DNA from: Escherichia coli
Lineage (GTDB): Bacteria; Pseudomonadota; Gammaproteobacteria; Enterobacterales; Enterobacteriaceae
Assembly (NCBI RefSeq): GCF_036507355.1
Contig: NZ_AP027877.1
Reading direction: 5' to 3' (one strand)
DNA: 64,000 nt
The translations under genes were made by a program, and so were the position numbers. Below, piece by piece: positions 1 through 31,849 of the stretch. Below the pieces are notes generated by a model. It did not search any database and was not told the DNA's origin. It was given only the letters and a program-made list of their open reading frames with translations. Position 1 is the stretch's first letter. Every line of letters starts with the position of its first letter.

Positions 1-741
1 CTGAAAATGCTCGGCGTACCGCGCGCAGAGCTGAAAGCCCGCGTCAAAGAGGCGTTGGCGATGGTGGATGTGGAAGGATTCGAAGACCGCTTTGTCGATC
101 AGATCTCCGGCGGGCAGCAGCAGCGCGTGGCGCTGGCCCGCGCGCTGATCCTCAAGCCGAAAGTGCTGCTGTTTGATGAGCCGTTGAGTAACCTCGACGC
201 CAACCTGCGTCGCAGCATGCGCGACAAGATCCGCGAGTTGCAAAAGCAGTTTGATATCACCTCGCTGTACGTCACCCACGATCAGAGCGAAGCCTTTGCG
301 GTTTCTGATACTGTGCTGGTGATGAACAAGGGACACATCATGCAGATCGGCTCACCGCAGGATCTTTACCGCCAGCCCGCCTCCCGCTTTATGGCGAGCT
401 TTATGGGCGATGCCAACCTGTTCCCGGCAACCTTCAGCGACGGATACGTTGATATCTACGGCTATCATCTGCCGCGCCCGCTGCACTTTGGTACACAGGG
501 TGAAGGGATGGTCGGTGTGCGCCCGGAAGCGATCACGCTCAGCGATCGCGGCGAAGAGAGCCAGCGCTGCGTGATCCGCCATGTCGCCTATATGGGGCCG
601 CAGTATGAAGTGACGGTGGAATGGCACGGGCAGGAGATATTATTGCAGGTCAACGCTACGCGTCTGCAACCGGACGTCGGCGAGCAGTATTATCTTGAAA
701 TCCATCCGTACGGCATGTTTGTTCTGGCGGATGCGGCATAA
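1..741 (+). CDS. afuC: ABC transporter ATP-binding subunit, C-terminal ~246 aa (5' end lies outside window)
   Basis: ABC signature LSGGQQQRVALARAL and Walker B LLFDEPLSNLD in ORF 7..741; symbol assigned from position next to mmuM as in E. coli. Confidence 0.65.
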   Translation: MKMLGVPRAELKARVKEALAMVDVEGFEDRFVDQISGGQQQRVALARALILKPKVLLFDEPLSNLDANLRRSMRDKIRELQKQFDITSLYVTHDQSEAFAVSDTVLVMNKGHIMQIGSPQDLYRQPASRFMASFMGDANLFPATFSDGYVDIYGYHLPRPLHFGTQGEGMVGVRPEAITLSDRGEESQRCVIRHVAYMGPQYEVTVEWHGQEILLQVNATRLQPDVGEQYYLEIHPYGMFVLADAA

Positions 742-759
742 CGTTTTGTGGTTTTGTAG

Positions 760-830
760 GCCGGATAAGGCGCTTGTGCCGCCATCCGGCAATGCCTGAT
801 GCGCTGCGCTTATCAGGCCTACAATGAACG
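760..830. repeat. REP-like palindromic element downstream of afuC
   Basis: gccggataaggcg / gcctgatgcgctgcgcttatcaggcctac motifs typical of enterobacterial REP units. Confidence 0.5.
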
Positions 831-849
831 ATGTAGACCCGATAAACCC

Positions 850-1782
850 TCAGCTTCGCGCTTTTAACGCGGCGATATCCGCAGGCGTGGTGCGACAGCA
901 CCCGCCAATCAACCGTGCGCCAGCGGCCTGCCACTGCGGCAGATAATCCGCCAGCTGCGCGCAATGTTCACCGTGATGATGCCAGGTTTTGCTCACGGCA
1001 TCGTAATGCTCGCCCGAGTTCGGATACACCACCAGCGGCAGCACCGTTAAACCGTGTAAATGCTGCAACGCAGCAGTGGTGTTTTCCAGCGCAATACAGT
1101 TAATGCCTAGCGCCACCACCTGCGGATAACCCGCCAGCAACGCAACCACGTCACGCAGCGGCGTACCGTCGCTCAGGTGTTCGCTGTCGCGCAGGGTAAA
1201 TGAGAACCACGCCCGCGCACGCGGATATGCGGTCAACAGCTCGGCCAACGCCTCAATCTCGGAAAAATTCGGCAGGGTTTCGCAGGCCAGCAGATCGGCC
1301 CCGGCATCCAGCAAGGCTTCCACGCGCGGGCGATGAAACGCCTGAAATGCCTCAACGCTACAATGATAATCGCCACGGTATTCAGAGCCATCCGCCAGAT
1401 ACGCGCCGTAAGGCCCGACGGATCCCGCCACCAGAAGCGTTCCCGCCTGCGGGTTCTCTGCCAGATACGCTTCACGGGCTTTACGCGCCAGCTCCACGCT
1501 TTTGCCAATCAGCGCTTTCGACTGCGCTTCATCCAGACCTCGCGCGGCGAAGCCCGCCGGCGTCGCCTGATAGCTGGCAGTGATCGCGCATTGCGCCCCC
1601 GCCCGGTAGTAATCAAGATGCACTTCGCGGATAAGCTCCGGGTTTTCTACCAGCACTTTGGCTGACCACAGGCTGTCGGCTAAGTTACACCCTCGCGCTT
1701 CCAGCTCCGTCGCCATCGCGCCATCCAGCAGCAGGATATCCTGTTTATCAAGAAGAGCGCGTAACGGATTATTCTGCGACAT
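850..1782 (-). CDS. mmuM: homocysteine S-methyltransferase (310 aa)
   Basis: ORF 850..1926; start placed at internal [28 protein letters not shown], which matches the MmuM N-terminus. Confidence 0.85.
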
Positions 1783-3172
1783 GTTCTGGCTCCTGTTTTG
1801 CGTTTCGGGGTTGAGTAAGGAAATAAGCACCATAGCACAACGCAACAAACGGTAACCCGCACCACAACGCAATTCTCTGCGCTGGATCGAATGCCAGCCC
1901 AACACAGGCCACCAGGCACAGCACAAAACCTAATACTGGCACCAGCGGATACCACGGCGCGCGATAATGTAATTCACTCAATGCCTTACCTTGTTGCAGA
2001 TGACGGCGACGAAAAACAAAATGCGAGGCGCAGATACTCAGCCACACCGCTACCACCGCAAACCCGGAGATTGCCGACAGCGCAACAAATACCGTGTCCG
2101 GGGCCACCACGCTGGAAAACAGCGCCAGCACACCACCGAGCATACTGACCGACAGCGCCGTCAGTGGCACGCCGTTTTTCGTTACTCGCGCAAAACAGGC
2201 CGGTAGCGTACGTTCATTCGACAACGACCACAGCATGCGCCCGGAGGCATATAACCCGGAGTTCGCTGCAGAAAGAATAGCCGTCAGGATCACGAAGTTA
2301 AAAATATCAGCGGCGTACGGGATCCCTACTTTCTCAAATACCAGCACAAACGGGCTTTTCTCCACGCCCGCCTGCTGCATCGGGATCAGCGCTGCCAGCA
2401 CAAACACGGTGCCGATAAAGAAAATAATCAGTCGCGCGATGGTAGTACGAATCGCTACCGGGATAACTTTGCGCGGGTTTTCCGTTTCACCGGCGGCAAT
2501 GCCGATAAGCTCGGTACCCGAAAAAGCAAAGTTCACTGCCACCATAGTCATCAAAATCGGTAAGCCACCGTGCGGGAACCAGCCTTCTGCCGTGATATTA
2601 CTCAGCCCCGGCGCGGGCGAGCCATCCTGCATCGGAATAAAGCCGAAAATCGCCGCCCCACCGAGGATGATAAAGGCGATGATAGTGACCACTTTGACCA
2701 GCGAGAACCAGAACTCCCCTTCGGCAAAAAAGCGCGTGGAGATAACATTCAGACCAAAAATAATCGCGCAGAACACCACGCACCAGACCCATACCGGCAC
2801 CTGTGGAAACCAGTACTGCATACAGAATCCAGCGGCGGTAAAGCTCGAACCCAGCGCCACGGTCCAGGTCAGCCAGTAAAGCCAGGCCACGGTATACCCG
2901 GTAGCCGGACCAAGATAGCGCGCGGCATAAACGTGAAACGCTCCGGTCTCCGGCATCGCGACCGACAGCTCGCCCAGACACTGCATAACCAGCCAGACCA
3001 CCAGCGCACCAATCAGATAGGCCAGCAGCGTTCCCGCCGCTCCAGTGGTGGAAATGATGTACCCGGTATTGAAGAATAATCCTGTGCCAATCACGCCGCC
3101 CAAGGAAAGCATAATCAGGTGACGCGTTTTCATTGTGCGCTTCAGTGGCGCATTTTGTTGTGTTGTTTGCAT
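1769..3172 (-). CDS. mmuP: S-methylmethionine permease, APC family (467 aa)
   Basis: ORF 1769..3196; start placed at [33 protein letters not shown]; polytopic amino-acid permease; overlaps mmuM start. Confidence 0.85.
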
Positions 3173-3347
3173 ATAACCTTCTAAACGCATGGACATCTAA
3201 ACATCCAAAGAAGGTTTGTTATACCGCGTTTGTTAACAGAATGCAAAGTCAACCCTGCACCAGACGCAGATGCCCGCGCCGGGCGCTTAATAGCGGGTGG
3301 GGATTAATAATCAGATACAAAAAGGGCCGCCAGCTCATAACGCCTCC

Positions 3348-4542
<1,195 letters not shown>

Positions 4543-4659
4543 CAAGAGAACGCAACAGCGCACTTGCTTTGCCACAGTTGAATTTTGTGCCGTAACGATG
4601 TGCAAGCATGTAAGCATAAGGAGTCAAGGTATAGCGTGTTACTTAGTTACTCGGATTAA

Positions 4660-5137
4660 CAATCCCAACGTACAGAGCGGCGGATTTACAGAGTCAGCGC
4701 AGTCCCTGCTCCGGCAGTCAGTGGCAGGCGGCGTACTGAAGCAAACCATTATCGATACCGGCATCGGCGATACCATCGGCATGCTGATGTCACACGGCAA
4801 TATTTCTCCCTACATCATGGCGTGGTTGATAACCGTGCTGATCCGTCTGGCAACGGGTCAGGGCGTGGTCTCAGCCATGACGGCGGCGGGGATTATTAGC
4901 GCAGCAATCCTCGACCCGGCAACCGGTCAACTGGTGGGCGTCGACCCGGCGTTGCTGGTGCTGGCAACAGCGGCTGGCTCCAACACGCTGACCCATATCA
5001 ACGATGCTTCGTTCTGGCTGTTCAAAGGCTACTTTGATCTGTCGGTGAAGGATACGCTGAAAACCTGGGGTCTGCTGGAGCTGGTAAACTCCGTGGTTGG
5101 CCTGATAATCGTGTTGATCATCAGCATGATTGCATAA
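4660..5137 (+). pseudogene. 3' fragment of a GntP-family permease gene, 5' part replaced by IS5
   Basis: Only the C-terminal ~150 aa remain (..[71 protein letters not shown]..); the track ORF 4271..5137 reads through the IS5 terminus. Confidence 0.5.
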
Positions 5138-5186
5138 CGTTGATACCGCTCTGGCCCACAGCGCCAGAGCGGTTTTCCATCCTGCC

Positions 5187-5882
5187 TCAACAATCCTCAA
5201 TAATCAGATATACCGCCTTCACCGGACCATGCACCCCAACCACCTTGATAAGCTCAATATCCGCCGTCGAGCTGGGTCCACTGATGATATTAATGCACGA
5301 TGGCATACGCTCACCGGCCTGTGCTTTCTGATGCAGTTTTTCTGCCAGCTGCGCCACGCGCGGCAGGATGGTGCTTTTACGCAGCACGAAAATAGAGGAC
5401 TCCGGCAACAGGCTCAGGGAGCGCCCGCGCTCCGGTGCGGAAAACAGCACCACGCCGCCGGACTCGGTCAGGCCATATTCGGCATACACCACGCCGACTT
5501 TCGCCTGCTCGGCCTGGGTAATATTTTCGCTACCACGCGCCGGATCCCAGACCACGGCGTTGCATTCCTGCTGCAAGCGTTCGGTGATGCCCAGCTCCAC
5601 CAGCCGGCTGTCGCCGCTCAGCACCACCGGCTGCTGACCCAATTCTTCGCACAGGCGCAGTGCCGCGTCTGCGGCCTGGTCCTCGCTGGTCAGTTCGCAG
5701 CGGGCCAGCATCACTTCGCTGGCAAACTGGATAAACGCAGAGCAGCGCTGCTCGGGGCTAAGCTCGGTCAGGCGCTCGTTGGCATAGTTGTTAACCGGTG
5801 CGGCATCCGCTTGCGGTTCGAAGCGCAGCGGGCGACCCAGCGCCTGGGCGATGGTGTTTAAAAACGCGGTACGGTTATCCAT
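5187..5882 (-). CDS. lutC: LutC/YkgG-family lactate utilisation protein C (231 aa)
   Basis: ORF 5187..6029 with internal start MDNRTAFLNTIAQALGRP; 8-nt overlap with upstream lutB end. Confidence 0.75.
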   Translation of the reverse strand: MDNRTAFLNTIAQALGRPLRFEPQADAAPVNNYANERLTELSPEQRCSAFIQFASEVMLARCELTSEDQAADAALRLCEELGQQPVVLSGDSRLVELGITERLQQECNAVVWDPARGSENITQAEQAKVGVVYAEYGLTESGGVVLFSAPERGRSLSLLPESSIFVLRKSTILPRVAQLAEKLHQKAQAGERMPSCINIISGPSSTADIELIKVVGVHGPVKAVYLIIEDC

Positions 5883-7302
5883 TCTTTTTCTCCTGCGCCT
5901 GATGTTTCTTAAACCAGCTGCGGAAGCTCTCGCCGTCAGCATCAGGCAGATCGCGCGCCTCCATCCAGTCACCAATCGCGCCAACCTTGAGCGGGGTTTT
6001 GCCGCCATTGATAAACCAGCTCGCCGCATGCGCGCCCGCCATCATCCCGACTTTCCACAGCCCCGGATGGCTATTGGCATAGGCGAACATCTTGATCGCC
6101 CGTCGCTCGGCTTTCGGCGTAATGCCCTCCTCGGCCATCACCCGGCGATGACGCAGGATCAGTTTTGACAACGGAATACGCACCGGGCAGACGCTGTCAC
6201 AAGCCGTGCACAAAGAACAGGCGTACGGCAGGTCTTTAAAATCTTTATAGCCGCCGAGCAGCGGAGAAATCACCGCGCCGATAGGGCCGGGATAGATAGA
6301 GCCATAGCCGTGCCCGCCGATGTGGCGGTACGCCGGACAGGTGTTCATACAGGCTCCGCAGCGGATGCAGCGCAGCACATCGCGAAACTCTGAGCCCAGC
6401 ACCTGCGAGCGACCGTTATCGACAATCACCAGATGGAACTCTTCCGGTCCGTCAACGTTGTCCGCCTCACGCGGGCCGGTCAGCCAGGTGTTGTAGCCCG
6501 TCAGACGTGCGCCCACGGCGCTGCGCGCCAGCATGGTAATCAGCACATCCACCTCGGCAAAGGTCGGCGCGATACGCTCCATGCCCATCACCGCAATGTG
6601 CGTTTTCGGTAGCGTGGTGCACATGCGCGCGTTGCCTTCGTTGGTCACCAGACACACCGAGCCGGTTTCCGCCACGGCAAAGTTACAGCCAGTAATACCG
6701 ATTTCGGCACTGAGGAAATCCTCGCGGATCTTCTGACGAATGAACAAGGTCATAGCTTCCGGGGTTTCCGGGCCGTCGTACCCCAGACGTTCGTTCAGCA
6801 CGCGGCGGATCTGGTAGCGATCTTTATGAATCGCCGGAACCACGACGTGCGAAGGCGGATCCTGATCCAACTGCAGGATATATTCCCCGAGATCGGTTTC
6901 GATCACCTGGATTCCGGCATCCTGCAACACATGGTTGACGCCGATTTCTTCGGTCACCATCGACTTGGACTTCACCACCTTCTGCGCATTTTTACTCTGC
7001 GCGACCTGCAAAATGTAGCGAGTGGCATCTTCTTTGGTTTTGGCGAAATAGACGTGTCCGCCGTTTTCCGTCACTTTCTCGGAGAGTTGGTACAGGTAAG
7101 CGTCGAGGTTGCTCAGAACGTGATCGCGGATCTGGCTGGCACGATCGCGCCATTCTTCCCAGTGGCCTAACTCATCGACCATTTTTTGCCGATTCGCGCC
7201 GATACGCTCCTGCGCATTAGCTACGGCTTTGCGCATAATCGGATCTTCTATCTGCTGACGAATACGCAGTTTAAATTCTACATCGCTGGTTTTTATCGAC
7301 AT
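5875..7302 (-). CDS. lutB: LutB/YkgF-family iron-sulfur lactate utilisation protein (475 aa)
   Basis: Two ferredoxin-type Cys clusters (CIRCGACMNTCP, CSLCTACDSVCP); length and order match LutB/YkgF. Confidence 0.85.
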   Translation of the reverse strand: MSIKTSDVEFKLRIRQQIEDPIMRKAVANAQERIGANRQKMVDELGHWEEWRDRASQIRDHVLSNLDAYLYQLSEKVTENGGHVYFAKTKEDATRYILQVAQSKNAQKVVKSKSMVTEEIGVNHVLQDAGIQVIETDLGEYILQLDQDPPSHVVVPAIHKDRYQIRRVLNERLGYDGPETPEAMTLFIRQKIREDFLSAEIGITGCNFAVAETGSVCLVTNEGNARMCTTLPKTHIAVMGMERIAPTFAEVDVLITMLARSAVGARLTGYNTWLTGPREADNVDGPEEFHLVIVDNGRSQVLGSEFRDVLRCIRCGACMNTCPAYRHIGGHGYGSIYPGPIGAVISPLLGGYKDFKDLPYACSLCTACDSVCPVRIPLSKLILRHRRVMAEEGITPKAERRAIKMFAYANSHPGLWKVGMMAGAHAASWFINGGKTPLKVGAIGDWMEARDLPDADGESFRSWFKKHQAQEKKNG

Positions 7303-7312
7303 CTCTTTCCCC

Positions 7313-8032
7313 TCAGCGGCTCATCAGCACTTCAGCAATATGCATCACTTTGACCGGCTGGCCTTCCCGTTGCAGTCGACCGCCAATGTTCAGCAGGCAG
7401 CTAACGTCTGCGCCAATCAAAAATTCCGGCTTTGCGTCCATCAGATGTAATACTTTCTCTTTCACCATCTCACCGGATATCTCGGCCATCTTGACCGAGA
7501 ACGTCCCGCCAAAGCCGCAACAGGTATCCTGATCGGCAAACGTCAACAGCTCCAGTCCGCGCACGTTTTTCAGCAGCGTAAGCGGCTCTTCCTTCACTCC
7601 CAGTTTGCGGGTCAGGCTACAGGAAGGATGATACACAGCGCGGCCCTGCAGGCTGGCACCAACGTCCACCACACCCAGTTTGTTGACGATAAAGGAGGTG
7701 AGATCCTGCATACGCGCGGAAACTTTCTCAGCACGCAGCGCCCATTCCGGTTCATCGGCCAGATACGTCGGGTAGCTTTTAACCGCGTAGGTGCAGGAGC
7801 CCGCCGGGGAGATAATCGGATCGTCGTTGTCTTCCAGCGCGGCGATCAGGTTTTTCATCCCGGGAATCGCCTCTTTGATGTAACCGCTGTTGATGGCTGG
7901 CTGACCGCAACACCCTTGCTTCTCGGGGAAATTAACGCGACAACCCAGTTTTTCCAGCAGCAATACGGAGTCTCGTGCCATCCGTGATTTCAGTGCGTCA
8001 CCAATACAGGTGACAAAGAAATTTACATTCAC
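7313..8032 (-). CDS. lutA: LutA/YkgE-family Cys-rich Fe-S oxidoreductase subunit (239 aa)
   Basis: CCG-type Cys-rich domain (FVTCIGD.., CCGQPA.., CCGFGG); first gene of the lutABC-like trio. Confidence 0.85.
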   Translation of the reverse strand: MNVNFFVTCIGDALKSRMARDSVLLLEKLGCRVNFPEKQGCCGQPAINSGYIKEAIPGMKNLIAALEDNDDPIISPAGSCTYAVKSYPTYLADEPEWALRAEKVSARMQDLTSFIVNKLGVVDVGASLQGRAVYHPSCSLTRKLGVKEEPLTLLKNVRGLELLTFADQDTCCGFGGTFSVKMAEISGEMVKEKVLHLMDAKPEFLIGADVSCLLNIGGRLQREGQPVKVMHIAEVLMSR

Positions 8033-8069
8033 AATAACTACTCCATTGCTTCATTTCTGTTTATTGCGC

Positions 8070-8087
8070 TTGATATCGCGATATCAA
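8070..8087. promoter_or_regulatory. Perfect 18-bp palindrome TTGATATCGCGATATCAA between the dld-like stop and lutA start
   Basis: Read directly from sequence; self-complementary; no T-run follows on either strand, so more likely an operator than a terminator. Confidence 0.3.
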
Positions 8088-8106
8088 ACAAATGTTCATT
8101 CGTATT

Positions 8107-9804
8107 TCATGCCCAGTTTTTATGTTTGCTGGTTTTACCAATACCTGGGTTCATAGTGTTGGTCGGATCATTTTCCTGATAAAAACGTGCCAAATTTTCC
8201 GGCGCTTTATACAGATGGCCGACATTGTGTTCCGCCGGATATTGCGCTCCGCGTTGGCGCAGTAATTCCAGCATCTGTTCTTTTAACGCGTGGGCATCTA
8301 CGCCTTTTTTAACGATATAATCCTGATGGAATACATGGCACATAAAATGGCCGTAATAGAGTTTATGCACCAACTGACTGTCAATTTCCGTCGGTAAATG
8401 CTCATACCATTCGGTATCATTGCGGCGTAATGGAATATCCAGCGCGAGAATATCCTCAACCTCGTCAGAATGAACAGCCTGATAACGAATGGCAGCACCC
8501 GCGGCGGCAAAACGATGCAGAAACGCCTTACTGCCCTCTTCCGCGGTACAGGTAAAGAACGCGCCCTCGGCCGATTTAAAATAGTCCGTTAACCATGCCT
8601 GGGCTTCGGCCACACCCTCACCGGACATTTTCAACATCAGATGGTGTTCATAGTTATCGCGCCAGGTCTTCATCCGCGCCGGGAGATGGCTCGGGAACAG
8701 ATGGCTAAAAGCCTGCATCGCGCGGTCGGTAAAGTGCGGGCGAAAGATCTTCACCTTCTCAAGTATGGCCTCGGTACGCCCCTTCAGGTTGAAGAAGAAC
8801 GGCATTTTGTCCGTGCCAAGTTTGTCGATCATCAGGAAGGTATCTTTGCTGTATTTCTCTGCAATATCATAGATATCGCGGTGCATATACTCCCCAGCAA
8901 CCGGCAGGTTTGTAAAATTCGCCAGGATGTGGCGGCGAATCTCAGTCAGGACATCAGTCTGATTGGTACCGATATAAAAGACCTGCTGGTTCTTCTCGGC
9001 TTCAAAGGTATCCAGACGTACGGCAAACACCGCTAACTTGCCCGCACAGCCAGAGGATTCAAACAGGCGATCCGGGTCAGCGTTGTAACGTGCTGGCGTG
9101 TCGGCATTGATGTCCCGCACGCGGCTAACATAGTCGTGATCGTGCGCGTGACGCCCGTCATGGTTGACGAGCACGGCTTCAATCGCATTGTTATCCAGCC
9201 GGGCAAGGATTTGCTCTGGCGTCTGACCTAGCTCAATGCCGAGGTGATTGACCAGCTGCAAGCGTCCCTGTTCATCAATACGGGCAAACAGCGACATCTC
9301 GGTATAAGCCGGGCCACGCTGGACCAGAGAACCGCCGGAGTTATTACAGATACCGCCGATAACCGACGCGCCGATGCACGAAGAGCCAATCACCGAATGC
9401 GGCTCACGGCCAAACGGCTTCAGCGCCTTTTCCAGCGAATACAGCGTGGTGCCCGGATAAGCCAGCACCTGCTTACCCTCATCTAGCACATGCAGACTGT
9501 CCAGCCGCAGCGTGCTGATAATGACGATCTCGCGGTCGTAATCATTACCATTGGGCGTCGAACCCTCAGTCAGGCCAGTGTTCGACGCCTGCATCAGGAT
9601 TATTTTATCGGCCTCAACGCAGGCGCTAAGGACTTTCCAGAGTTCAAGCAAAGAGCCGGGGATAACCACCGCCAGAGCATCACCCTGACCCGAGCGAAAA
9701 CCCTTACGGTAACGCGCAGTTTTTGACGGTTCGGTGAGGATATGAGCAGGGCCAACCAATTGGGTAAGAGTTGTCAAAAAGGTCTTATTATCAGTATGTT
9801 TCAT
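8107..9804 (-). CDS. dld: FAD-dependent D-lactate dehydrogenase, Dld paralogue (~565 aa)
   Basis: Collinear full-length similarity to E. coli Dld (..ARYRKGFRSGQGDALAVV.PGSLLELW.., ..RHILANF.NLPVAGEYMHRDIYDIAEKY..); start chosen at MKHTDNKTFL inside ORF 8107..9852; many substitutions versus K-12 Dld as recalled. Confidence 0.8.
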   Translation of the reverse strand: MKHTDNKTFLTTLTQLVGPAHILTEPSKTARYRKGFRSGQGDALAVVIPGSLLELWKVLSACVEADKIILMQASNTGLTEGSTPNGNDYDREIVIISTLRLDSLHVLDEGKQVLAYPGTTLYSLEKALKPFGREPHSVIGSSCIGASVIGGICNNSGGSLVQRGPAYTEMSLFARIDEQGRLQLVNHLGIELGQTPEQILARLDNNAIEAVLVNHDGRHAHDHDYVSRVRDINADTPARYNADPDRLFESSGCAGKLAVFAVRLDTFEAEKNQQVFYIGTNQTDVLTEIRRHILANFTNLPVAGEYMHRDIYDIAEKYSKDTFLMIDKLGTDKMPFFFNLKGRTEAILEKVKIFRPHFTDRAMQAFSHLFPSHLPARMKTWRDNYEHHLMLKMSGEGVAEAQAWLTDYFKSAEGAFFTCTAEEGSKAFLHRFAAAGAAIRYQAVHSDEVEDILALDIPLRRNDTEWYEHLPTEIDSQLVHKLYYGHFMCHVFHQDYIVKKGVDAHALKEQMLELLRQRGAQYPAEHNVGHLYKAPENLARFYQENDPTNTMNPGIGKTSKHKNWA

Positions 9805-10239
9805 GGAGGGCGGCTCTCCGCTCCTTATATCAGGGCCAGTGAAAATGGCCATAAGTTCATTTGTACGACAAAACAGAATATTCCCTCAATCAATATCCAC
9901 ATGCAATACCCCATTTTATTTCTTTCGGCACCGCTCACATTTTTTAATGAAATTACCACTACCACATAATTCATACTCCGTTCTTTTACTGGATGCCAAA
10001 ACGCTTATTTCATTTATTGCAAAGACCATTTCATACCTATTAATGATTAACTCTAATGGGTATTATTATATTTAGTGGTTATTCATATTTAATAAAAAAA
10101 TAACATTATTTATACAATTATTAACCTTTGTAACTTTATTTCACTGAAGCGATTCAGTTTGCATTTTTTATTTTATTATTAAGGTAGCCTCCTTCCCCCT
10201 AAATATAGTTAAGTCTAAAAAAGTAAATCGAGAATTGTA

Positions 10240-11793
10240 ATGCACGAATATTTAATGTTTGCCCTGGCACTCTCTCCTTTGCTGCTGATGGTATTTTTAA
10301 TACTGAAATTAAAAATGCCCATCCATTATTCCGTACTGATCTCTTTGGTATTCACCGCTGCACTATCGGCAATATTCTGGGAAATGCCCACACAGAATCT
10401 GAAAGCCGCGATAGGCTATGGTGCACTGAAGGGACTATGGCCGATCGTAATTGTTATCCTCGGCGCTATCTTCAGTTATAACGTCATGCAGGCGACCAAA
10501 GCGCTGGATATTCTGCGCGATATTCTCGCCAGCATTAGCGAAGATAAGCGTATTCAGGTGCTGCTGATTTCATGGTGTTTTGGTGGATTTCTTGAAGCCG
10601 CTGCGGGCTATGGCACGGCGGTCGCTATTCCGATCGGTATTCTCATTGCGCTGGGATTCAACCCGTTGAAGGCGGCGATTGCTTCCCTCGTAGCAAATAC
10701 CGTTCCGACCGCATTTGGCGCGGTTGGGATCCCAGTTTCTATTCTGGCAGAGCAGGTTAATCTGCCGGTTTATACCTTAGGCGGAACCATTATTTTGCAG
10801 CTCGCGCTGTTTAATATCCTGCTGCCGTTTGTGATTGTCTGCATTATTGGCGGTGGCCTGAAAGCCATTCGCGGCGTATTTCTGATCACGTTGATTTGCG
10901 GCATTTCCACGCTGGTTCCGCAATATTTTGTCGCCATCCATCTTGGCGCGGAATTACCCGCCTTTGCCGGTAGCCTGGTCAGCCTGTTTGCCGTGGCGAT
11001 GGTCAGTCGCCTGCGCAAAGGGAAAACCGATCCCGAGTGGCGCATTGAGGTCAGCCATACCCGCGAAACCACGCCGCGCTCGGCAAAAGTGTTGTTCCGG
11101 GTTGGCTCTATTTATCTGTTTATTTTTGTGTTTATCCTGCTGTGTTCGCCGCTGTTCCCGACAATAAAAAGCGTGGCATCCCAACTGGCTTCGGTGCTGC
11201 ATTTCACGTTGGCTGACGGCAAAACGATGGCGCTGAAAGTTGAATGGGCGACCACACCGGGGATGCTGATCATCTTTGCGACCATTATCGGCGGTTTTAT
11301 TCAGGGAGCGTCCGCACGTGGGATGCTGGAAGTATTTATCAAAACGATTTTCCAGCTTAAAAACTCTATCGTCGCAATTATGGCGATCGTCGCGCTGGCC
11401 ACGGTGATGGATCTCAGCGGGATTATCTCCACGCTGGCCCAGTCGATTGTCGATCTGACCGGCAGCTCGTACGTCTTCCTCGCCCCGGTGATTGGCGCGC
11501 TGGGCACGTTCGTGACCGGCAGCGATACCAACTCGAACATTCTGTTCGGCAAGCTGCAAACCATTGCCGCCAGCAAGTTACATATCGATCCTAACTGGCT
11601 GGCGGCGGCCAATACCTCTGGCGCTACGGGGGGGAAAATGATTTCGCCGCAAAGCATCGCCATCGCAGTTTCTGCCACCAAAATGGACGGTCAGGCCAAC
11701 CAGATTATGTCTGGCACCATGAAATACTGCTGCGCCTACATTGTGATCCTCGGCCTGAAAGTCGGTCTGTTTTATTACTGGTTTATGGCGTAA
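10240..11793 (+). CDS. L-lactate permease, LctP family (517 aa)
   Basis: Polytopic membrane protein with the LctP-family N-terminus; divergent from the dld-like operon across a 435-bp AT-rich region. Confidence 0.8.
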   Translation: MHEYLMFALALSPLLLMVFLILKLKMPIHYSVLISLVFTAALSAIFWEMPTQNLKAAIGYGALKGLWPIVIVILGAIFSYNVMQATKALDILRDILASISEDKRIQVLLISWCFGGFLEAAAGYGTAVAIPIGILIALGFNPLKAAIASLVANTVPTAFGAVGIPVSILAEQVNLPVYTLGGTIILQLALFNILLPFVIVCIIGGGLKAIRGVFLITLICGISTLVPQYFVAIHLGAELPAFAGSLVSLFAVAMVSRLRKGKTDPEWRIEVSHTRETTPRSAKVLFRVGSIYLFIFVFILLCSPLFPTIKSVASQLASVLHFTLADGKTMALKVEWATTPGMLIIFATIIGGFIQGASARGMLEVFIKTIFQLKNSIVAIMAIVALATVMDLSGIISTLAQSIVDLTGSSYVFLAPVIGALGTFVTGSDTNSNILFGKLQTIAASKLHIDPNWLAAANTSGATGGKMISPQSIAIAVSATKMDGQANQIMSGTMKYCCAYIVILGLKVGLFYYWFMA

Positions 11794-11995
11794 ACCATTG
11801 TCAACCCCGTCAAATTCGCGGCAATCGAATTTGACGACATAGTGACCAAAAAGGTTTACACCGCCCCGGGAACGGAACGAGGCAACAGACTTTACGATTT
11901 GTCGGCGCTGACTAAAATAGCGCCGATGTTTCAAATCGAGGATTGTTGTTATGTTGTTCTGGAAAAAGATGGTGAAGAAGTTCGACGCCTTTTCC

Positions 11996-12350
11996 GGTGA
12001 TGCTGCCAACTTACTGATTTAGTGTATGATGGTGTTTTTAAGGTGCTTGCGTGGCTTCCATTTCCATCAGATGTCCTTCCTGCTCCGCTACTGAAGGCGT
12101 GGTGCGTAACGGCAAAAGCACTGCCGGACATCAGCGCTATCTCTGCTCTCATTGCCGTAAAACATGGCAACTGCAGTTCACTTACACCGCCTCTCAGCCC
12201 GGTACGCACCAGAAAATCATTGATATGGCCATGAATGGCGTCGGATGTCGCGCCAGTGCACGCATTATGGGCGTTGGCCTCAACACGATTTTCCGCCATT
12301 TAAAAAACTCAGGCCGCAGTCGGTAACCTCGCGCATACAGCCGGGCAGTG
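11996..12350 (+). mobile_element. IS1 left portion (~355 bp), truncated by an IS2 insertion
   Basis: IS1 terminus GGTGATGCTGCCAACTTACTGATTTAGTGTATGATGGTG at 11996; intact insA; sequence switches to the IS2 terminus at 12351. Confidence 0.85.
12051..12326 (+). CDS. insA: IS1 InsA (91 aa, variant allele)
   Basis: [68 protein letters not shown].. Confidence 0.9.
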
Positions 12351-12979
12351 TAGACTGGCCCCCTGAATCTCCAGACAACCAATATCACTTAAATAAGTGA
12401 TAGTCTTAATACTAGTTTTTAGACTAGTCATTGGAGAACAGATGATTGATGTCTTAGGGCCGGAGAAACGCAGACGGCGTACTACACAGGAAAAGATCGC
12501 TATCGTTCAGCAGAGCTTTGAACCGGGAATGACGGTCTCCCTTGTTGCCCGGCAACATGGTGTGGCAGCCAGCCAGCTATTTCTCTGGCGTAAGCAATAC
12601 CAGGAGGGAAGTCTTACTGCTGTGGCTGCCGGAGAACAGGTCGTTCCTGCCTCTGAACTTGCTGCCGCCATGAAGCAGATTAAAGAACTCCAGCGCCTGC
12701 TCGGCAAAAAAACGATGGAAAATGAACTCCTTAAAGAAGCCGTTGAATATGGGCGAGCAAAAAAGTGGATAGCGCACGCGCCCTTATTGCCCGGGGATGG
12801 GGAGTAAGCTTCGTCAGCCGTTGTCTCCGGGTGTCGCGTGCGCAGTTGCACGTCATTCTCAGACGAACCGATGACTGGAAGGAAGGCCGCCGCAGCCGTC
12901 ACACGGATGATACGGATGTGCTTCGCCGTATACACCATGTTATCGGAGAGCTGCCCACATATGGTTATCGTCGGGTATC
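12351..12979 (+). mobile_element. IS2 left ~630 bp, 3' part deleted
   Basis: IS2 terminus TAGACTGGCCCCCTGAATCTCCAGACAACCAATATCACTTAAATAAGTGATAGTC at 12351; insC intact; insD reading frame leaves IS2 after ..PTYGYRRV near 12979. Confidence 0.85.
12442..12807 (+). CDS. insC: IS2 OrfA / InsC (121 aa)
   Basis: [56 protein letters not shown]..; A7 slippery run at 12707-12713. Confidence 0.9.
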
Positions 12980-20339: not shown

Positions 20340-20798
<459 letters not shown>

Positions 20799-22853: not shown

Positions 22854-24311
22854 GTGTCTGAACTGTCTCAATTATCTCCACAGCCGCTGTGGGATATTTT
22901 TGCCAAAATCTGTTCTATTCCTCACCCGTCCTATCATGAAGAGCAACTCGCTGAATACATTGTTGGTTGGGCAAAAGAGAAAGGTTTCCATGTCGAACGC
23001 GATCAGGTAGGTAATATCCTGATTCGTAAACCTGCTACAGCAGGTATGGAAAATCGTAAACCGGTCGTCTTGCAGGCCCACCTCGATATGGTGCCGCAGA
23101 AAAATAACGACACCGTGCATGACTTCACGAAAGATCCTATCCAGCCTTATATTGATGGCGAATGGGTTAAAGCGCGCGGCACCACGCTGGGTGCGGATAA
23201 CGGCATTGGTATGGCCTCTGCACTGGCGGTTCTGGCTGACGAAAACGTGGTTCACGGTCCGCTGGAAGTGCTGCTGACCATGACCGAAGAAGCCGGTATG
23301 GACGGTGCTTTTGGCTTACAGAGCAACTGGTTGCAGGCTGATATTCTGATTAACACCGACTCCGAAGAAGAAGGTGAAATCTACATGGGTTGCGCGGGGG
23401 GTATCGACTTCACCTCCAACCTGCATTTAGATCGTGAAGCGGTTCCAGCTGGTTTTGAAACCTTCAAGTTAACCTTAAAAGGTCTGAAAGGCGGTCACTC
23501 CGGCGGGGAAATCCACGTTGGCCTGGGTAATGCCAACAAACTGCTGGTGCGCTTCCTGGCGGGTCATGCAGAAGAACTGGACCTGCGTCTTATCGATTTC
23601 AACGGCGGCACACTGCGTAACGCCATCCCGCGTGAAGCCTTTGCGACCATTGCTGTCGCAGCTGATAAAGTCGACGCCCTGAAATCTCTGGTGAATACCT
23701 ATCAGGAGATCCTGAAAAACGAGCTGGCAGAGAAAGAGAAAAATCTGGCCTTGTTGCTGGACTCTGTAGCGAACGATAAAGCTGCCCTGATTGCGAAATC
23801 TCGCGATACCTTTATTCGTCTGCTGAACGCCACCCCGAACGGTGTGATCCGCAATTCCGACGTGGCAAAAGGTGTGGTCGAAACCTCCCTGAACGTCGGT
23901 GTGGTGACCATGACTGACAATAACGTAGAAATTCACTGCCTGATCCGTTCTCTGATCGACAGCGGTAAAGACTACGTGGTGAGCATGCTGGATTCGCTGG
24001 GTAAACTGGCTGGCGCGAAAACCGAAGCGAAAGGCGCATATCCTGGCTGGCAGCCGGACGCTAATTCTCCGGTGATGCATCTGGTACGTGAAACCTATCA
24101 GCGCCTGTTCAACAAGACGCCGAACATCCAGATTATCCACGCGGGCCTGGAATGTGGTCTGTTCAAAAAACCGTATCCGGAAATGGACATGGTTTCTATC
24201 GGGCCAACAATCACCGGTCCACACTCTCCGGATGAGCAAGTTCACATCGAAAGCGTAGGTCATTACTGGACACTGCTGACTGAACTGCTGAAAGAAATTC
24301 CGGCGAAGTAA
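22854..24311 (+). CDS. pepD: cytosol nonspecific dipeptidase (485 aa, GTG start)
   Basis: MSELSQLSPQPLWDIFAKICSIPHPSYHEEQLAEYIV.. Confidence 0.95.
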   Translation: MSELSQLSPQPLWDIFAKICSIPHPSYHEEQLAEYIVGWAKEKGFHVERDQVGNILIRKPATAGMENRKPVVLQAHLDMVPQKNNDTVHDFTKDPIQPYIDGEWVKARGTTLGADNGIGMASALAVLADENVVHGPLEVLLTMTEEAGMDGAFGLQSNWLQADILINTDSEEEGEIYMGCAGGIDFTSNLHLDREAVPAGFETFKLTLKGLKGGHSGGEIHVGLGNANKLLVRFLAGHAEELDLRLIDFNGGTLRNAIPREAFATIAVAADKVDALKSLVNTYQEILKNELAEKEKNLALLLDSVANDKAALIAKSRDTFIRLLNATPNGVIRNSDVAKGVVETSLNVGVVTMTDNNVEIHCLIRSLIDSGKDYVVSMLDSLGKLAGAKTEAKGAYPGWQPDANSPVMHLVRETYQRLFNKTPNIQIIHAGLECGLFKKPYPEMDMVSIGPTITGPHSPDEQVHIESVGHYWTLLTELLKEIPAK

Positions 24312-24322
24312 TTATTTGATTT

Positions 24323-24358
24323 GCTGCCGGATGGCGTTTAATCGCCTTCCGGCAGTTT
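24323..24358. terminator. Hairpin between convergent pepD and prfH remnant
   Basis: ctgccggatggcg..cgccttccggcag inverted repeat followed by TTTCA. Confidence 0.45.
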
Positions 24359-24367
24359 CATCCTTCA

Positions 24368-24925
24368 TTATCCTTCGATAAAAGCCATCCCTGTGAACGT
24401 TCGTCGCGGGTTGCCACGTTCAATCTGGTGATGGAACATTCGCCGCTGCGATTTCAGCGCCGCGCTATTTTCCTGTTGCTGCTGCCCCAGCTTCCAGGCA
24501 ATCAGCAATCGCGCCAGCCGTTTGTTAGCATGCTGGCTGCGCTCTGACTGAACCTTCACGCTAATACCGGATGCCAGATGCGTGGCGCGTACCGCCGAGT
24601 CGGTTTTATTGACATGTTGACCGCCCGGCCCCGACGAACGCAGCGTCTCATAACGGATTGCATCCGATTGTTCCTGCTCATCAGCGGTAAAACGCCCAAT
24701 GCCCAGAAACCAGTTTTTGCGCCCATGATGAGGCCGATACGGACTCGGACAAATCCACTGAATAGTGCCGCACCAACTTTCGCTTAATGCCCATGCGTTA
24801 TCGCCATCCAGAGAAATCAGCGCCGAACGCAGCGTGTCAGAGTAGCGGCCTGTTTCTGTTTCCAGCACCGTTACCGCGACGTCTTGTCGGGTAAAAACGA
24901 CCAACAGAGAAGAACGCTGCGCCAA
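24368..24925 (-). pseudogene. prfH: peptide chain release factor H homologue, N-terminally truncated
   Basis: Carries the GGQ motif (..[21 protein letters not shown]..) but lacks the N-terminal segment of full-length PrfH. Confidence 0.75.
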
Positions 24926-25103
24926 TCGGGTAGCCGCGTCCGGGGTGTAAATCTGGCATCCCCACTACGCGCTGCATGTTGGGTAAATTTGCCGTGGTGT
25001 GTAATTGTTGGATCGCTAAACTCTCGATCCACAGGTCATCAGATGCGATAATAAATACCGCATCGGATAAGGGACGAATATATTTGCCCATGTACCATTC
25101 CAT
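24837..25103 (-). pseudogene. ykfJ: RtcB-family RNA ligase N-terminal fragment
   Basis: ..[31 protein letters not shown] then out of register; abuts the prfH remnant. Confidence 0.7.
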
Positions 25104-25408
25104 TTATACTCGTCATACTTCAAGTTGCATGTACTGCGACTGCGTTCGTTCACCCCAGTCACTTACTTATGTAAGCTCCTGGGGATTCACTCGCTTGTCG
25201 CCTTCCTGCAACTCGAATTATTTAGAGTATATAAATATAAAAATCAGGAAATGGCAGACGAATCCAGGGCAAGAAAAAAAGAATTAATCCTGGAAAGATC
25301 TGCAAAGAGTCATTGATAAAGGATTTGTCATGATTTACCTCCTTGCAGTTTGTGGAATAAGAAAACGCGCACATACCAGGCGGGCGTTATTTTCATTGCA
25401 AGCTGGAT

Positions 25409-25861
25409 TTAATGTTGCGGTTTATATCGCATATAAAAATTAGTAAACCAAGCTCCACGGCATTCAACGCGCTGCTGCTTAACTGTCTGAAAACCATAAC
25501 GTTCAAAAAAGGGTTTTGCGGTTATGCTGGCGTCCACCGTAAGTTCGGATTCAGACTTAATCAAAGGTTTTAACAAAGCGCTGGCAACCCCACGGCGGGT
25601 GTATTCAGGGTCAACAAATAACATATCGATATAATGTTCAATGCGGGAAATAAAACCAACCGGTTGTGCATTAATGACTGCAACCCGCACTTGTGATTTC
25701 GCGAGTTTCTCCTTCCAGCGAGATTCGTCAATCTGCGCCCAGGCGGCAATTTGTTGTGGTGAATAATGCTGACTGGCGGTCATCGTAACCGCTCTAATGA
25801 AAATAGCGCATAGTTGCTGAAAATCGCCAGGCTGATAGTTTCTTATTTGTATGTTATTCAT
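25409..25861 (-). CDS. yafP: GNAT-family acetyltransferase YafP (150 aa)
   Basis: [25 protein letters not shown]..; start codon overlaps the dinB stop (ATGA). Confidence 0.8.
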
Positions 25862-26913
25862 AATCCCAACACCAGTTGTCTTTCCATTTGCGGGTCAAGC
25901 AACGTCACGTGCAGCCCCACCAGACGCACACCTCGCCCGCCGCGGCGTTCATCCCAGGTTTTACGCGCGGTGGCGATTAAGTCAGCTTTATTCAGCCGCG
26001 GCCAGACGTGCTCCTGAGTGGTTTGCTGAAAATCGTCGAACTTTAATTTCACTCCCTGGCGAGCAATCAGTAAATCAGGTTTTACCTTTGCCAGACGGCG
26101 TTCAAGTTCCGGATACAGCCGCTCGATAATCGCTTCACATTCAGACCAGTGATGAATATCTTCCGCCATCGTGCGTTCCACGCCGACGGATTTTCGTAAC
26201 CGTTCGCTGTTAACGTCGCGCTCGTCAATCCCCTGACTACGCTCCCACAAAATGCGGCCAAATTTGCCAAAGCGTTTAAGCAGAATCACCAGATCACACT
26301 TTTGTACATCACCGCAGGTCCGCAGCCCCATCGCTTCCAGCTTTGCCGCTGAGACTTTGCCAACACCGGGAATTTTTGCCAGCGGTAAGGTTTGCAGAAA
26401 TGCCGGAACTTCTGCCGGCGTAATCACAAACTGGCCGTTGGGTTTATTCATGTCGGAGGCGATTTTGGCGAGAAACTTTACTGGTGCCACGCCCGCAGAC
26501 GCCGTCAGTTGCAGCTCGCTGAAAATCGTCTGGCGGATTTCCTGGGCGATGAGGGTCGCAGAACCGTGGCAATGGACGCTATCGGTGACATCGAGATAAG
26601 CCTCATCCAGTGACAACGGTTCAATGCGCGAGGTGTAGCGCGAGAAGATTTCACGGATATGATTTGAGGCTTCTTTGTAGGCGTCAAAGCGCCCCGGAAG
26701 CAAGGTGAGATGTGGGCATAATTTGAGCGCCATCCCTGTCGGCATAGCGCTGCGTACGCCAAATTTACGCGCGGGATAATTGGCGGTGCTGATCACCCCC
26801 CGACGTTCGCGGCTGCCGCCAATAGCAATAGGGATATCGCGCAGGGCGGGATTGTCGCGCATCTCCACTGCGGCGAAAAAGCAGTCCATATCCACATGAA
26901 TGATTTTACGCAT
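25858..26913 (-). CDS. dinB: DNA polymerase IV (351 aa)
   Basis: [34 protein letters not shown].. Confidence 0.95.
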
Positions 26914-26983
26914 TACTCACCTCTCAACACTGGTAAAGTATACAGTGATTTCAGGGTTTGAGAAATGCGTAAAGATTCAGCAT

Positions 26984-27874
26984 TTAGCGCGTTCGCTGCG
27001 AAAGCACCTGCTGCTTATCCAGCTTTTGCACCAGCGGCTGCACCACTTTATCCCCATGCTGACCAAAGTATTGATACAGCGTATCGGACGCACTTTTGGT
27101 CAGCACCATAATCTCAATACGCCGATTGCCCGCGCTTTGCGGATTTTTGGCATCCAGCAGCATCTGGTCCGCCATTGCGCTTACCTGCATCACTTTATCT
27201 TCCGGCATTCCGGCCTCTTCCAGCACCCGACGAGCTGAAAGCGCGCGATCGCCCGAAAGGTTCCAGTTGTTGTAGATATTGTTTTTGTAGGCCATCGCAT
27301 CGGTATGCCCGGTAATAATAATTTTGTTATCGAGCGAGTCGAACACTGGCGCGAGCTCCACCAGCAAAGTTTTAAAGAACGGCATAATCTGCGCGCTGCC
27401 GCGTTCGAACATATTGCGATTCTGGTCGTCTTTAATCAGCACGCGTAATCCCTGCGGGACAATCTCCATCTCCAGATTCGCTTCCATATGCGCATCACGG
27501 GCAATGGTGTTGATACTGGTTGCCAACTCGCCAAGCTCGGTGGCGGATTTCTTCTTCAGCAGCGCCGTTTTCTCATTCACATCACGCGCTTTTTTCTCCG
27601 TCTCTTCCGGCACCGCCACGGTGGCAGGTTTTGGCGGATGAGACGGGCTGATTTTATTTAACGGCGACAGCCCACCACCGTTAAAAATCGACTGCCCGTG
27701 CAGCGCGGCGATAATGCTTTCACGCTCGGATTTACTGACGCTGTTGACAATCAACTTTATCGTCGTCACCAAAGGGGCCGAGCGTATTTCCGAGGTTTCT
27801 GCCCGCTTTACCCTGGACGCGATGCCCGGCAAGCAGATGGCGATTGACGCCGATCTTAACGCCGGGTTGATCAA
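26984..27874 (-). pseudogene. lafU: Flag-2 MotB-like LafU remnant (OmpA-like C-terminal domain only)
   Basis: C-terminal OmpA/MotB domain (..IIITGHTDAMAYKNNIYNNWNLSGDRALSARRVLEEAGMPEDKV..NRRIEIMVL); N-terminal part of the ORF is non-native and overlaps lfhA. Confidence 0.6.
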
Positions 27875-29453
27875 CCAGGCACAGGCGCAAACCCGGCGTA
27901 AAGATGTTGCCAGCGAGGCCGATTTCTACGGCGCGATGGACGGGGCATCGAAGTTTGTGCGCGGGGATGCCATCGCCGGGATGATGATTCTGGCGATCAA
28001 CCTAATCGGCGGCGTCTGTATCGGCATCTTTAAATACAACCTGAGCGCCGACGCCGCCTTCCAGCAATATGTGCTGATGACCATCGGCGATGGGCTGGTG
28101 GCGCAGATCCCTTCCCTACTGCTCTCCACCGCGGCGGCGATTATCGTCACCCGCGTCAGCGACAACGGCGATATCGCCCATGACGTGCGCCACCAACTGC
28201 TGGCAAGCCCGACGGTGCTCTACACCGCCACTGGGATCATGTTTGTGCTGGCGGTGGTGCCAGGAATGCCGCACCTGCCGTTTTTGCTGTTCAGCGCCCT
28301 GCTTGGCTTTACCGGCTGGCGGATGAGCAAACGCCCGCAGGCGGCGGAGGCGGAGGAGAAAAGCCTCGAAACGCTAACCCGCACCATCACCGAAACCAGC
28401 GAGCAACAGGTCAGTTGGGAAACCATTCCGCTGATCGAGCCCATCAGTTTAAGCCTCGGCTTCAAGCTGGTGGCGCTGGTCGATAAAGCGCAGGGTAACC
28501 CGCTCACCCAGAGGATTCGCGGCGTGCGGCAGGTGATTTCCGACGGCAACGGCGTGCTGCTGCCGGAGATCCGCATTCGGGAAAACTTCCGTCTCAAGCC
28601 GAGCCAGTACGCCATTTTCATCAACGGCATTAAGGCTGATGAAGCGGATATTCCGGCGGATAAACTGATGGCCCTGCCCTCCAGCGAAACCTACGGCGAG
28701 ATTGACGGCGTGCTGGGGAACGACCCGGCGTACGGGATGCCAGTGACCTGGATCCAGGCGGCGCAGAAAGCGAAGGCGCTGAATATGGGGTATCAGGTGA
28801 TCGACAGCGCCAGCGTGATTGCCACCCATGTGAACAAGATTGTCCGCAGCTATATTCCTGATTTGTTTAACTATGATGACATCACGCAGTTGCATAACCG
28901 TTTGTCGTCGATGGCACCGCGCCTGGCGGAGGATTTAAGCGCGGCGCTCAATTACAGCCAATTGCTGAAAGTGTACCGGGCGCTGCTGACCGAAGGCGTT
29001 TCCCTGCGCGATATCGTCACCATCGCCACCGTGCTGGTCGCAAGTAGCACGGTGACCAAAGATCATATTCTGCTGGCAGCTGATGTGCGCCTGGCACTGC
29101 GGCGCAGCATTACCCATCCGTTCGTTCGCAAGCAGGAGCTGACGGTGTATACGCTGAATAATGAGCTGGAAAATCTGCTGACCAACGTGGTGAATCAGGC
29201 GCAACAGGGCGGGAAAGTGATGCTCGACAGCGTGCCGGTCGACCCGAATATGCTCAACCAGTTCCAGAACACGATGCCGCAGGTAAAAGAGCAGATGAAA
29301 GCGGCGGGGAAAGACCCGGTGCTGCTGGTGCCGCCGCAGCTTCGCCCTTTGCTGGCGCGCTATGCGAGATTGTTTGCGCCGGGGCTGCATGTGCTGTCGT
29401 ATAACGAAGTGCCGGATGAGCTGGAGTTGAAGATAATGGGGGCGCTGATGTAG
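27714..29453 (+). pseudogene. lfhA: Flag-2 FlhA-like LfhA, missing ~130 N-terminal residues
   Basis: Begins mid-protein at ..VVTKGAERISEVSARFTLDAMPGKQMAIDADLNAGLI.. (FlhA family). Confidence 0.7.
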
Positions 29454-31307: not shown

Positions 31308-31568
31308 ATGGCTGCAAATGCATTTGTTCGTGCCCGAATCGATGAGGATTTGAAGAATCAGGCGGCGGACGTACTGGCCGGGATGGGGCTGACCATCTCT
31401 GACCTGGTTCGCATAACCCTCACAAAGGTCGCGCGTGAAAAGGCATTGCCGTTTGATTTACGCGAGCCTAATCAATTAACCATTCAATCAATCAAAAACA
31501 GCGAAGCTGGCGTTGGTGTTCATAAGGCCAAAGACGCCGATGATTTATTTGATAAATTAGGAATTTAA
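31308..31568 (+). CDS. dinJ: antitoxin DinJ (86 aa)
   Basis: MAANAFVRARIDEDLKNQAADVLAGMGLTISDLVRITLTKVAREKALPFDLREPNQ.. Confidence 0.9.
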   Translation: MAANAFVRARIDEDLKNQAADVLAGMGLTISDLVRITLTKVAREKALPFDLREPNQLTIQSIKNSEAGVGVHKAKDADDLFDKLGI

Positions 31569-31570
31569 AT

Positions 31571-31849
31571 ATGATTCAAAGGGATATTGAATACTCGGGA
31601 CAATTTTCAAAGGATGTAAAACTTGCACAAAAGCGTCATAAGGATATGAATAAATTGAAATATCTTATGACGCTTCTTATCAATAATACTTTACCGCTTC
31701 CAGCTGTTTATAAAGACCACCCGCTGCAGGGTTCATGGAAAGGTTATCGCGATGCTCATGTCGAACCGGACTGGCTCCTGATTTACAAACTTACCGATAA
31801 ACTTTTACGATTTGAGAGAACTGGAACTCACGCGGCGCTCTTTGGGTAA
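31571..31849 (+). CDS. yafQ: mRNA interferase toxin YafQ (92 aa)
   Basis: MIQRDIEYSGQFSKDVKLAQKRHKDMNKLKYLMTLLINNTLPLPAVYKDHPLQGSWKGYRDAHVEPDWLLIYK.. Confidence 0.9.
   Translation: MIQRDIEYSGQFSKDVKLAQKRHKDMNKLKYLMTLLINNTLPLPAVYKDHPLQGSWKGYRDAHVEPDWLLIYKLTDKLLRFERTGTHAALFG

Follow-up and report, generated by a model that had tools for sequence, protein, structure and literature searches.

The stretch of Escherichia coli DNA analysed here (the window, 64,000 nucleotides) carries, in our reading and with high confidence, the dinB operon under LexA control in its common two-gene form, an allele that lacks the 759-bp yafN-yafO type II toxin-antitoxin cassette and would have been taken from a pool of two-gene alleles rather than created by a private deletion. 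The two-gene form is an already published, species-wide polymorphism with a distribution of roughly 50:50 and is in that respect ordinary. Mildly new are the length of the repeat bounding the cassette (7 bp), an updated frequency of the two operon forms, a haplotype break at the dinB/yafP junction and the low synonymous divergence of yafNO.

The dinB-yafP junction and its predicted expression

In the window, yafP lies directly downstream of dinB on the same strand and both reading frames are intact (Table 1). An earlier note on this DNA had claimed that the two genes overlap by ATGA, and this is borne out by the sequence and the list of open reading frames: the dinB stop codon TGA (25860..25858) overlaps the yafP start codon ATG (25861..25859), with TG common to both. 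A protein identical to the DinB of the window matches the Pfam families IMS, IMS_HHH and IMS_C, and one identical to its YafP matches Acetyltransf_1, Acetyltransf_7 and Acetyltransf_10.

Table 1. Positions of the dinB operon features and of neighbouring loci in the window
Feature	Position	Strand	Basis or remark
dinB, DNA polymerase IV, 351 aa, intact	25858..26913	-	ORF list; 99.4% identity to K-12 DinB, full length
yafP, GNAT-family N-acetyltransferase, 150 aa, intact	25409..25861	-	ORF list; 98.0% identity to K-12 YafP, full length
ATGA overlap of dinB and yafP	25858..25861	-	tcat on the + strand; junction GGGATTATGAATAAC
ATTATGA, single copy	25858..25864	-	Alignment with K-12; present twice, as a direct repeat flanking the 759-bp yafNO block, in four-gene strains
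LexA (SOS) box CTGTATACTTTACCAG, predicted, upstream of dinB	26930..26945	-	Identical to K-12
Sigma-70-like promoter match TTCTCA-16-TATACT, overlapping the LexA box	26937..26964	-	Consensus scan, 9/12; pattern match only
Truncated and fused rtcB and prfH	24368-25103		As the K-12 ykfJ/prfH pseudogenes
Flag-2 lateral-flagella deletion scar	26984-29453		Colinear with the K-12 lfhA and lafU pseudogenes
dinJ-yafQ toxin-antitoxin pair	31308-31849		Intact, 86 aa and 92 aa
Site of IS1I (in crl) in MG1655	20663-20670		No IS1; K-12 alignment continuous
Segment adjoining aspV, about 23 kb	38348-61857		Mostly absent from the K-12 regions compared
Segment with afuC, mmuM and mmuP	1-12976		These genes 99.85% identical to K-12
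IS5-like copy	3348-4542		95.6% identical to K-12 IS5
IS1 fragment	11992-12350		

The K-12 gene order given in the earlier note, dinB-yafN-yafO-yafP, is correct according to the MG1655 annotation (dinB b0231, yafN b0232, yafO b0233 and yafP b0234). The four-gene operon of MG1655 resembles that of the window in its site between lafU and ykfJ/prfH/pepD and in its LexA box, and it differs by an extra 759 bp consisting of the yafN upstream region, yafN (97 aa) and yafO (132 aa). Alignment of the two operons leaves one exact gap of this length in the window, which confirms that no yafN-yafO pair separates dinB and yafP there. In K-12, the block is entered at the end of dinB after GGGATTATGA (continuing with TGTATAC) and left at the start of yafP after TATATTATGA (continuing with ATAAC), so that it is bounded by a 7-bp direct repeat, ATTATGA, a copy of which is kept both at the end of dinB and just before yafP in all nine of the four-gene loci listed. 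The flanking repeat is thus 7 bp long, compared with the "two ATGA sequences" described previously (Gutierrez et al., 2011, NAR 39:4192, PMC3105422), which is mildly new. No transposon-like inverted repeat was seen by eye at the ends of the yafNO block.

A copy of yafNO elsewhere in the window, which had been named beforehand as the observation that would speak against its absence, was not found by tblastn and blastn over the 64 kb: searches with K-12 YafN, YafO and the 755-bp yafNO DNA returned nothing intact or degraded, the best E values being 0.14-0.23. The window accordingly holds no type II toxin-antitoxin system composed of a gene for a YafN (Phd/YefM-type) antitoxin and one for the YafO toxin.

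Two differences from K-12 lie in the 87 nt preceding the dinB ATG, both outside the LexA box. That the operon is SOS-regulated, as stated in the earlier note, agrees with the exact match of this box to K-12, and because of this match SOS control of dinB-yafP is probably intact in the window. A consensus scan of the coding strand between dinB and yafP gave no promoter-like or terminator-like match, which together with the 4-nt overlap suggests that dinB and yafP would be co-transcribed from the LexA-repressed promoter. YafP may then be translated by termination-reinitiation, ribosomes stopping at the dinB TGA and restarting at the overlapping ATG; such coupling is suggested because only a weak GGGA is present 2 nt upstream of the yafP ATG. 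Termination-reinitiation is the usual behaviour of ATGA overlaps. Frameshifting, not reinitiation, has been suggested for the dinB/yafP overlap (Gutierrez et al., 2011), a term that we think is less apt than reinitiation for YafP.

Frequency and origin of the two-gene allele

The junction represents a genuine allele, not something due to chance, since a 101-bp query centred on it is covered by at least 80% in 2,566 of 5,426 complete RefSeq E. coli genomes (47%). All 25 two-gene sequences examined, the window being one of them, have exactly GGGATTATGAATAAC at the junction. K-12 yafNO DNA was found in 2,847 of the same genomes (52%), so that the two counts add up to 5,413, and it appears that almost no genome combines both states. 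The Clermont markers arpA, chuA, yjaA and TspE4.C2 map far from the dinB region in K-12. In an earlier study, the two-gene operon was present in 40% of 98 sequenced genomes and in 50% of the ECOR strains, always fused with the ATGA overlap, and by phylogroup almost all A strains were four-gene, all B1 strains two-gene, and B2 and D mixed (Gutierrez et al., 2011). The two-gene operons of CFT073, UTI89 and all ECOR B1 strains share with the window an intact dinB and yafP, the ATGA overlap, the lack of yafN and yafO and the junction sequence, without any structural difference (Gutierrez et al., 2011). The window differs from them in a rarer synonymous T at 25869 (GTG TTG, not GTG CTG) and in having its flanking haplotypes in a combination that was not sampled elsewhere.

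These counts bear on two broader claims of the earlier note. Its statement that yafNO is absent from this genome holds for the 64-kb window, while absence from the whole genome is likely only, by way of the near-exclusive counts. Its description of a strain-level difference is right insofar as a two-gene operon stands against the four-gene operon of K-12, but does not hold as a peculiarity of one strain, since the polymorphism is published and concerns about half of the species. It could be argued that yafNO sits elsewhere in the source genome, considering that the DNA examined amounts to 64 kb and that yafNO matches occur on plasmid records at 8 places. However, the median is one yafNO place per genome among the 5,426, and the near-complementary counts leave little room for genomes with both states, so two-gene genomes would rarely, if ever, keep yafNO at another site; a relocated copy is therefore very improbable. 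An assembly or sequencing artefact in which the two ATTATGA copies collapsed and the cassette was dropped is less probable still, to the point of being negligible: a short repeat exists and nothing more, whereas the identical junction occurs in the independent complete genomes counted above, the dinB and yafP frames are both intact and a 7-bp repeat is too short to collapse an assembly.

For the origin of the allele, 16 E. coli loci across the identity range, the 3 best junction matches, 4 GTDB outgroup loci and 15 loci encoding an identical DinB or YafP were compared. Two-gene and four-gene alleles are interspersed in neighbour-joining (NJ) trees of dinB and of yafP, with the two-gene strains GN02350 and ST131 beside the four-gene strain IHE3034, and the window beside the four-gene strains O157:H7 and K-12. 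A single clade of all two-gene alleles, which would indicate a single origin, is not seen in either tree. The nearest match on the yafP side comes from a four-gene strain, E. coli A30 (L035, CP028745), with 3 differences in the 2,965 nt from yafP to pepD (25864..22900). On the dinB side, the same strain diverges from the window by 3.2%, beginning at 25869, 11 nt from the junction, which places the break in similarity at the dinB/yafP junction (25858-25869).

The sequences that meet at this break recur in other strains. The yafP haplotype of the window is found again, with no SNP from 25400 to 25868, in the two-gene loci L033, L034 and L039, and in other loci this haplotype is found combined with several dinB haplotypes. 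On the dinB side, the alleles of the window at 25869, 25909, 25924 and 25933 are common to the two-gene strains 33F4 and 23S01245-7, from which the window differs at no site between 25786 and 25893, and the T at 25869 is also present in the two-gene loci L037 and L038. As junction-adjacent sequence recurs in other two-gene strains, the allele appears to have been inherited or imported and not to have arisen by private deletion; most likely, the window would have inherited it or imported it by homologous recombination from the existing two-gene pool. From these sequence comparisons we conclude that the dinB-yafP region is strongly mosaic. The 759-bp heterology, if it stops recombination tracts, would account for blocks that end at the junction.

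The main competing explanation is a recent in-situ deletion private to the lineage of the window, in which yafNO disappeared from a four-gene immediate ancestor through slipped-strand or short-homology recombination involving the two ATTATGA copies. This would apply to the window the deletion model of Gutierrez et al. (2011), and it can draw on the direct repeats that flank the cassette in every four-gene locus listed, on the 99.9% identity of the yafP-to-pepD side to four-gene A30, on the grouping of the window with four-gene O157:H7 and K-12 in both trees and on other known deletions in the module, namely in E1V33, where yafO is reduced to 8 codons, and in H177, which has only the yafN half. 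Against it, the dinB-side divergence from A30 means that removing the cassette from A30 would not yield the window, and both junction-proximal haplotypes already exist in other two-gene strains, so that we consider a private deletion improbable, if clearly less so than relocation or an artefact. A30 being four-gene, a recent change of state in the lineage of either the window or A30 is possible.

No match of at least 99% to the window on both sides of the junction was present in any collection, which means that descent is not directly traceable. Loci with an identical DinB or YafP show at most 99.7% identity to the window, and this on one side of the junction only. By megablast of a 1.7-kb, a 3.9-kb and two 24-kb pieces, best identities among the 5,426 complete genomes were 97.4-98.9%, with none above about 98% over 24 kb, none above 97.4% over dinB-lfhA and none at 99% over dinB-yafP; over the conserved backbone the limit is about 97.4-98.3%. 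On this sequence evidence, the source lineage seems to be unrepresented among these genomes and may be a Shigella or a rare lineage.

Polarity of the yafN-yafO difference

Two published views differ on how the two operon forms are related. According to one, recombination between the repeats deleted yafNO independently on at least three occasions (Gutierrez et al., 2011), while the other regards dinB-yafP as an undisturbed bicistronic operon with yafNO inserted in its intercistronic region (Fraikin et al., 2020, PMC7167474). In the same publication a comparable situation is found at relA-mazEF-mazG, another locus with other genes, where a type II toxin-antitoxin pair lies between two cistrons in some strains and the bicistronic operon is undisturbed in others (Fraikin et al., 2020).

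Several observations favour deletion. Direct repeats such as these 7-bp copies classically give rise to deletions, further losses within the module are known (the 8 remaining yafO codons of E1V33, the yafN-only H177 and one strain with a yafO pseudogene), and four-gene operons occur in E. whittamii, in SCPM-O-B-8794 and, as reported previously, in E. fergusonii (Gutierrez et al., 2011). In addition, two-gene and four-gene B2 strains hardly differ in their flanks, and a GC content of 42-44% is common to yafN, yafO and yafP, compared with 54% for dinB. In favour of insertion are the invariant two-gene junction, which is simplest if ancestral and at which the haplotype blocks end, and the two-gene operon of Escherichia sp. 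MOD1-EC7003, which is about 5% diverged. The outgroups are thin: a scan with YafP using one genome per GTDB species yielded four Escherichia loci (two four-gene, one two-gene and one with yafO deleted) and an unrelated planctomycete GNAT protein at 35% identity, with E. fergusonii, E. albertii, E. marmotae and E. ruysiae not recovered, probably because exact peptide patterns were unmatched.

The divergence of the cassette itself also speaks to this question. Between K-12 and E. whittamii, synonymous divergence (dS) is 0.29 for dinB and 0.17 for yafP but 0.088 for yafN and 0.037 for yafO, and between K-12 and IHE3034 the corresponding values are 0.23 and 0.18 compared with 0.088 and 0.036. Overall, synonymous divergence is 3-8 times lower in the yafNO cassette than in dinB and yafP (L001 6955-7709 compared with L005, L023, L021 and L003), which suggests a recent horizontal spread of yafNO. 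In line with this, K-12 and E. whittamii share 98.0% identity over the yafNO block, compared with 92.5-94.6% for lafU, dinB, yafP, prfH and pepD (Fisher p = 2e-6). Between K-12 and SCPM-O-B-8794, identity is 96.3% for yafNO and 94-95% for the flanks, a contrast that is not significant (Fisher p = 0.14); the cassette is therefore not young in every comparison. A model of purely vertical inheritance and loss, under which cassette divergence should track that of the flanks, fails for E. whittamii and the B2 strains and roughly holds for SCPM-O-B-8794.

Neither simple model accounts for everything, and probably both deletion and insertion with subsequent spread operate. Tentatively, and with somewhat less than even confidence, we consider that the two-gene form may be ancestral and that yafNO would be a later insertion, which duplicated ATTATGA and spread by recombination between Escherichia lineages and even species, making the K-12 form the derived one. 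If true, this would overturn the published conclusion that yafNO was deleted independently three times or more. That yafNO is less diverged than its flanks at synonymous sites was seen in a small sample, but evidence of this kind, repeated at scale, could decide between deletion and insertion.

Further forms of the operon were encountered among the loci compared. In Escherichia sp. E1V33 (L002 3676-4000), a third form, dinB-yafN-(yafO remnant)-yafP, retains only the initial 8 codons of yafO, which run into the yafP start region at a TTAT microhomology. What is left is an orphan antitoxin and a 10-codon yafO remnant ORF, and here too this ORF terminates in ATGA where yafP starts. The E1V33 form resembles the window in its locus, in the context of the yafP start and in the partial removal of the module at a short repeat, but keeps the antitoxin gene yafN and loses only the toxin, whereas the window is without both. 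In at least one E. coli genome, H177, the yafN half is all that is left of the module. In the four-gene strain E. coli SY019 (L019 772-1170), the annotation gives an intact yafN but a yafO pseudogene interrupted by a stop codon, representing another route to toxin loss.

Neighbouring loci and consequences for the strain

The backbone of the window is colinear with K-12 around 213-278 kb. Upstream of dinB, the Flag-2 scar consists of a truncated lafU and a 579-aa lfhA fragment that abut and overlap; at the same site, motA, lafU and other Flag-2 genes are instead kept in six of the loci compared (L027, L031, L033, L037, L038 and L040). On the yafP side, an 88-aa N-terminal fragment of RtcB is fused to a prfH fragment, and several other strains have full-length rtcB (379 aa) and prfH (204 aa) at this position. 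The crl gene is presumably uninterrupted in the window.

Larger differences from K-12 are found towards the ends of the window. The island adjoining aspV has partial matches in other strains, where the annotation names a T6SS VgrG, a Tle1-like effector, IS600, ISAs1, a type III restriction-modification system and genes of CP4-type elements, and none of the 5,426 complete E. coli genomes covers at least 80% of it (38.3-62.0 kb). At the opposite end, afuC, mmuM and mmuP are followed by the IS5-like copy, whose identity to its K-12 counterpart is low by comparison, and by about 7.4 kb that are unmatched in the K-12 regions compared, together with the IS1 fragment.

The neighbouring toxin-antitoxin module dinJ-yafQ, 5.4 kb from dinB, is retained although yafNO is missing. 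For the window itself the allele matters little, being one of two common alleles of a well-studied operon. Nevertheless, the strain would lack the ribosome-dependent mRNA interferase YafO together with its antitoxin YafN, and results obtained with yafNO in K-12 would not be applicable to it. It resembles instead CFT073, the strain used to show the functional link between DinB and YafP, and the pairing of these two proteins, kept in the two-gene form, has been argued to represent the functionally linked core of the operon (Gutierrez et al., 2011).
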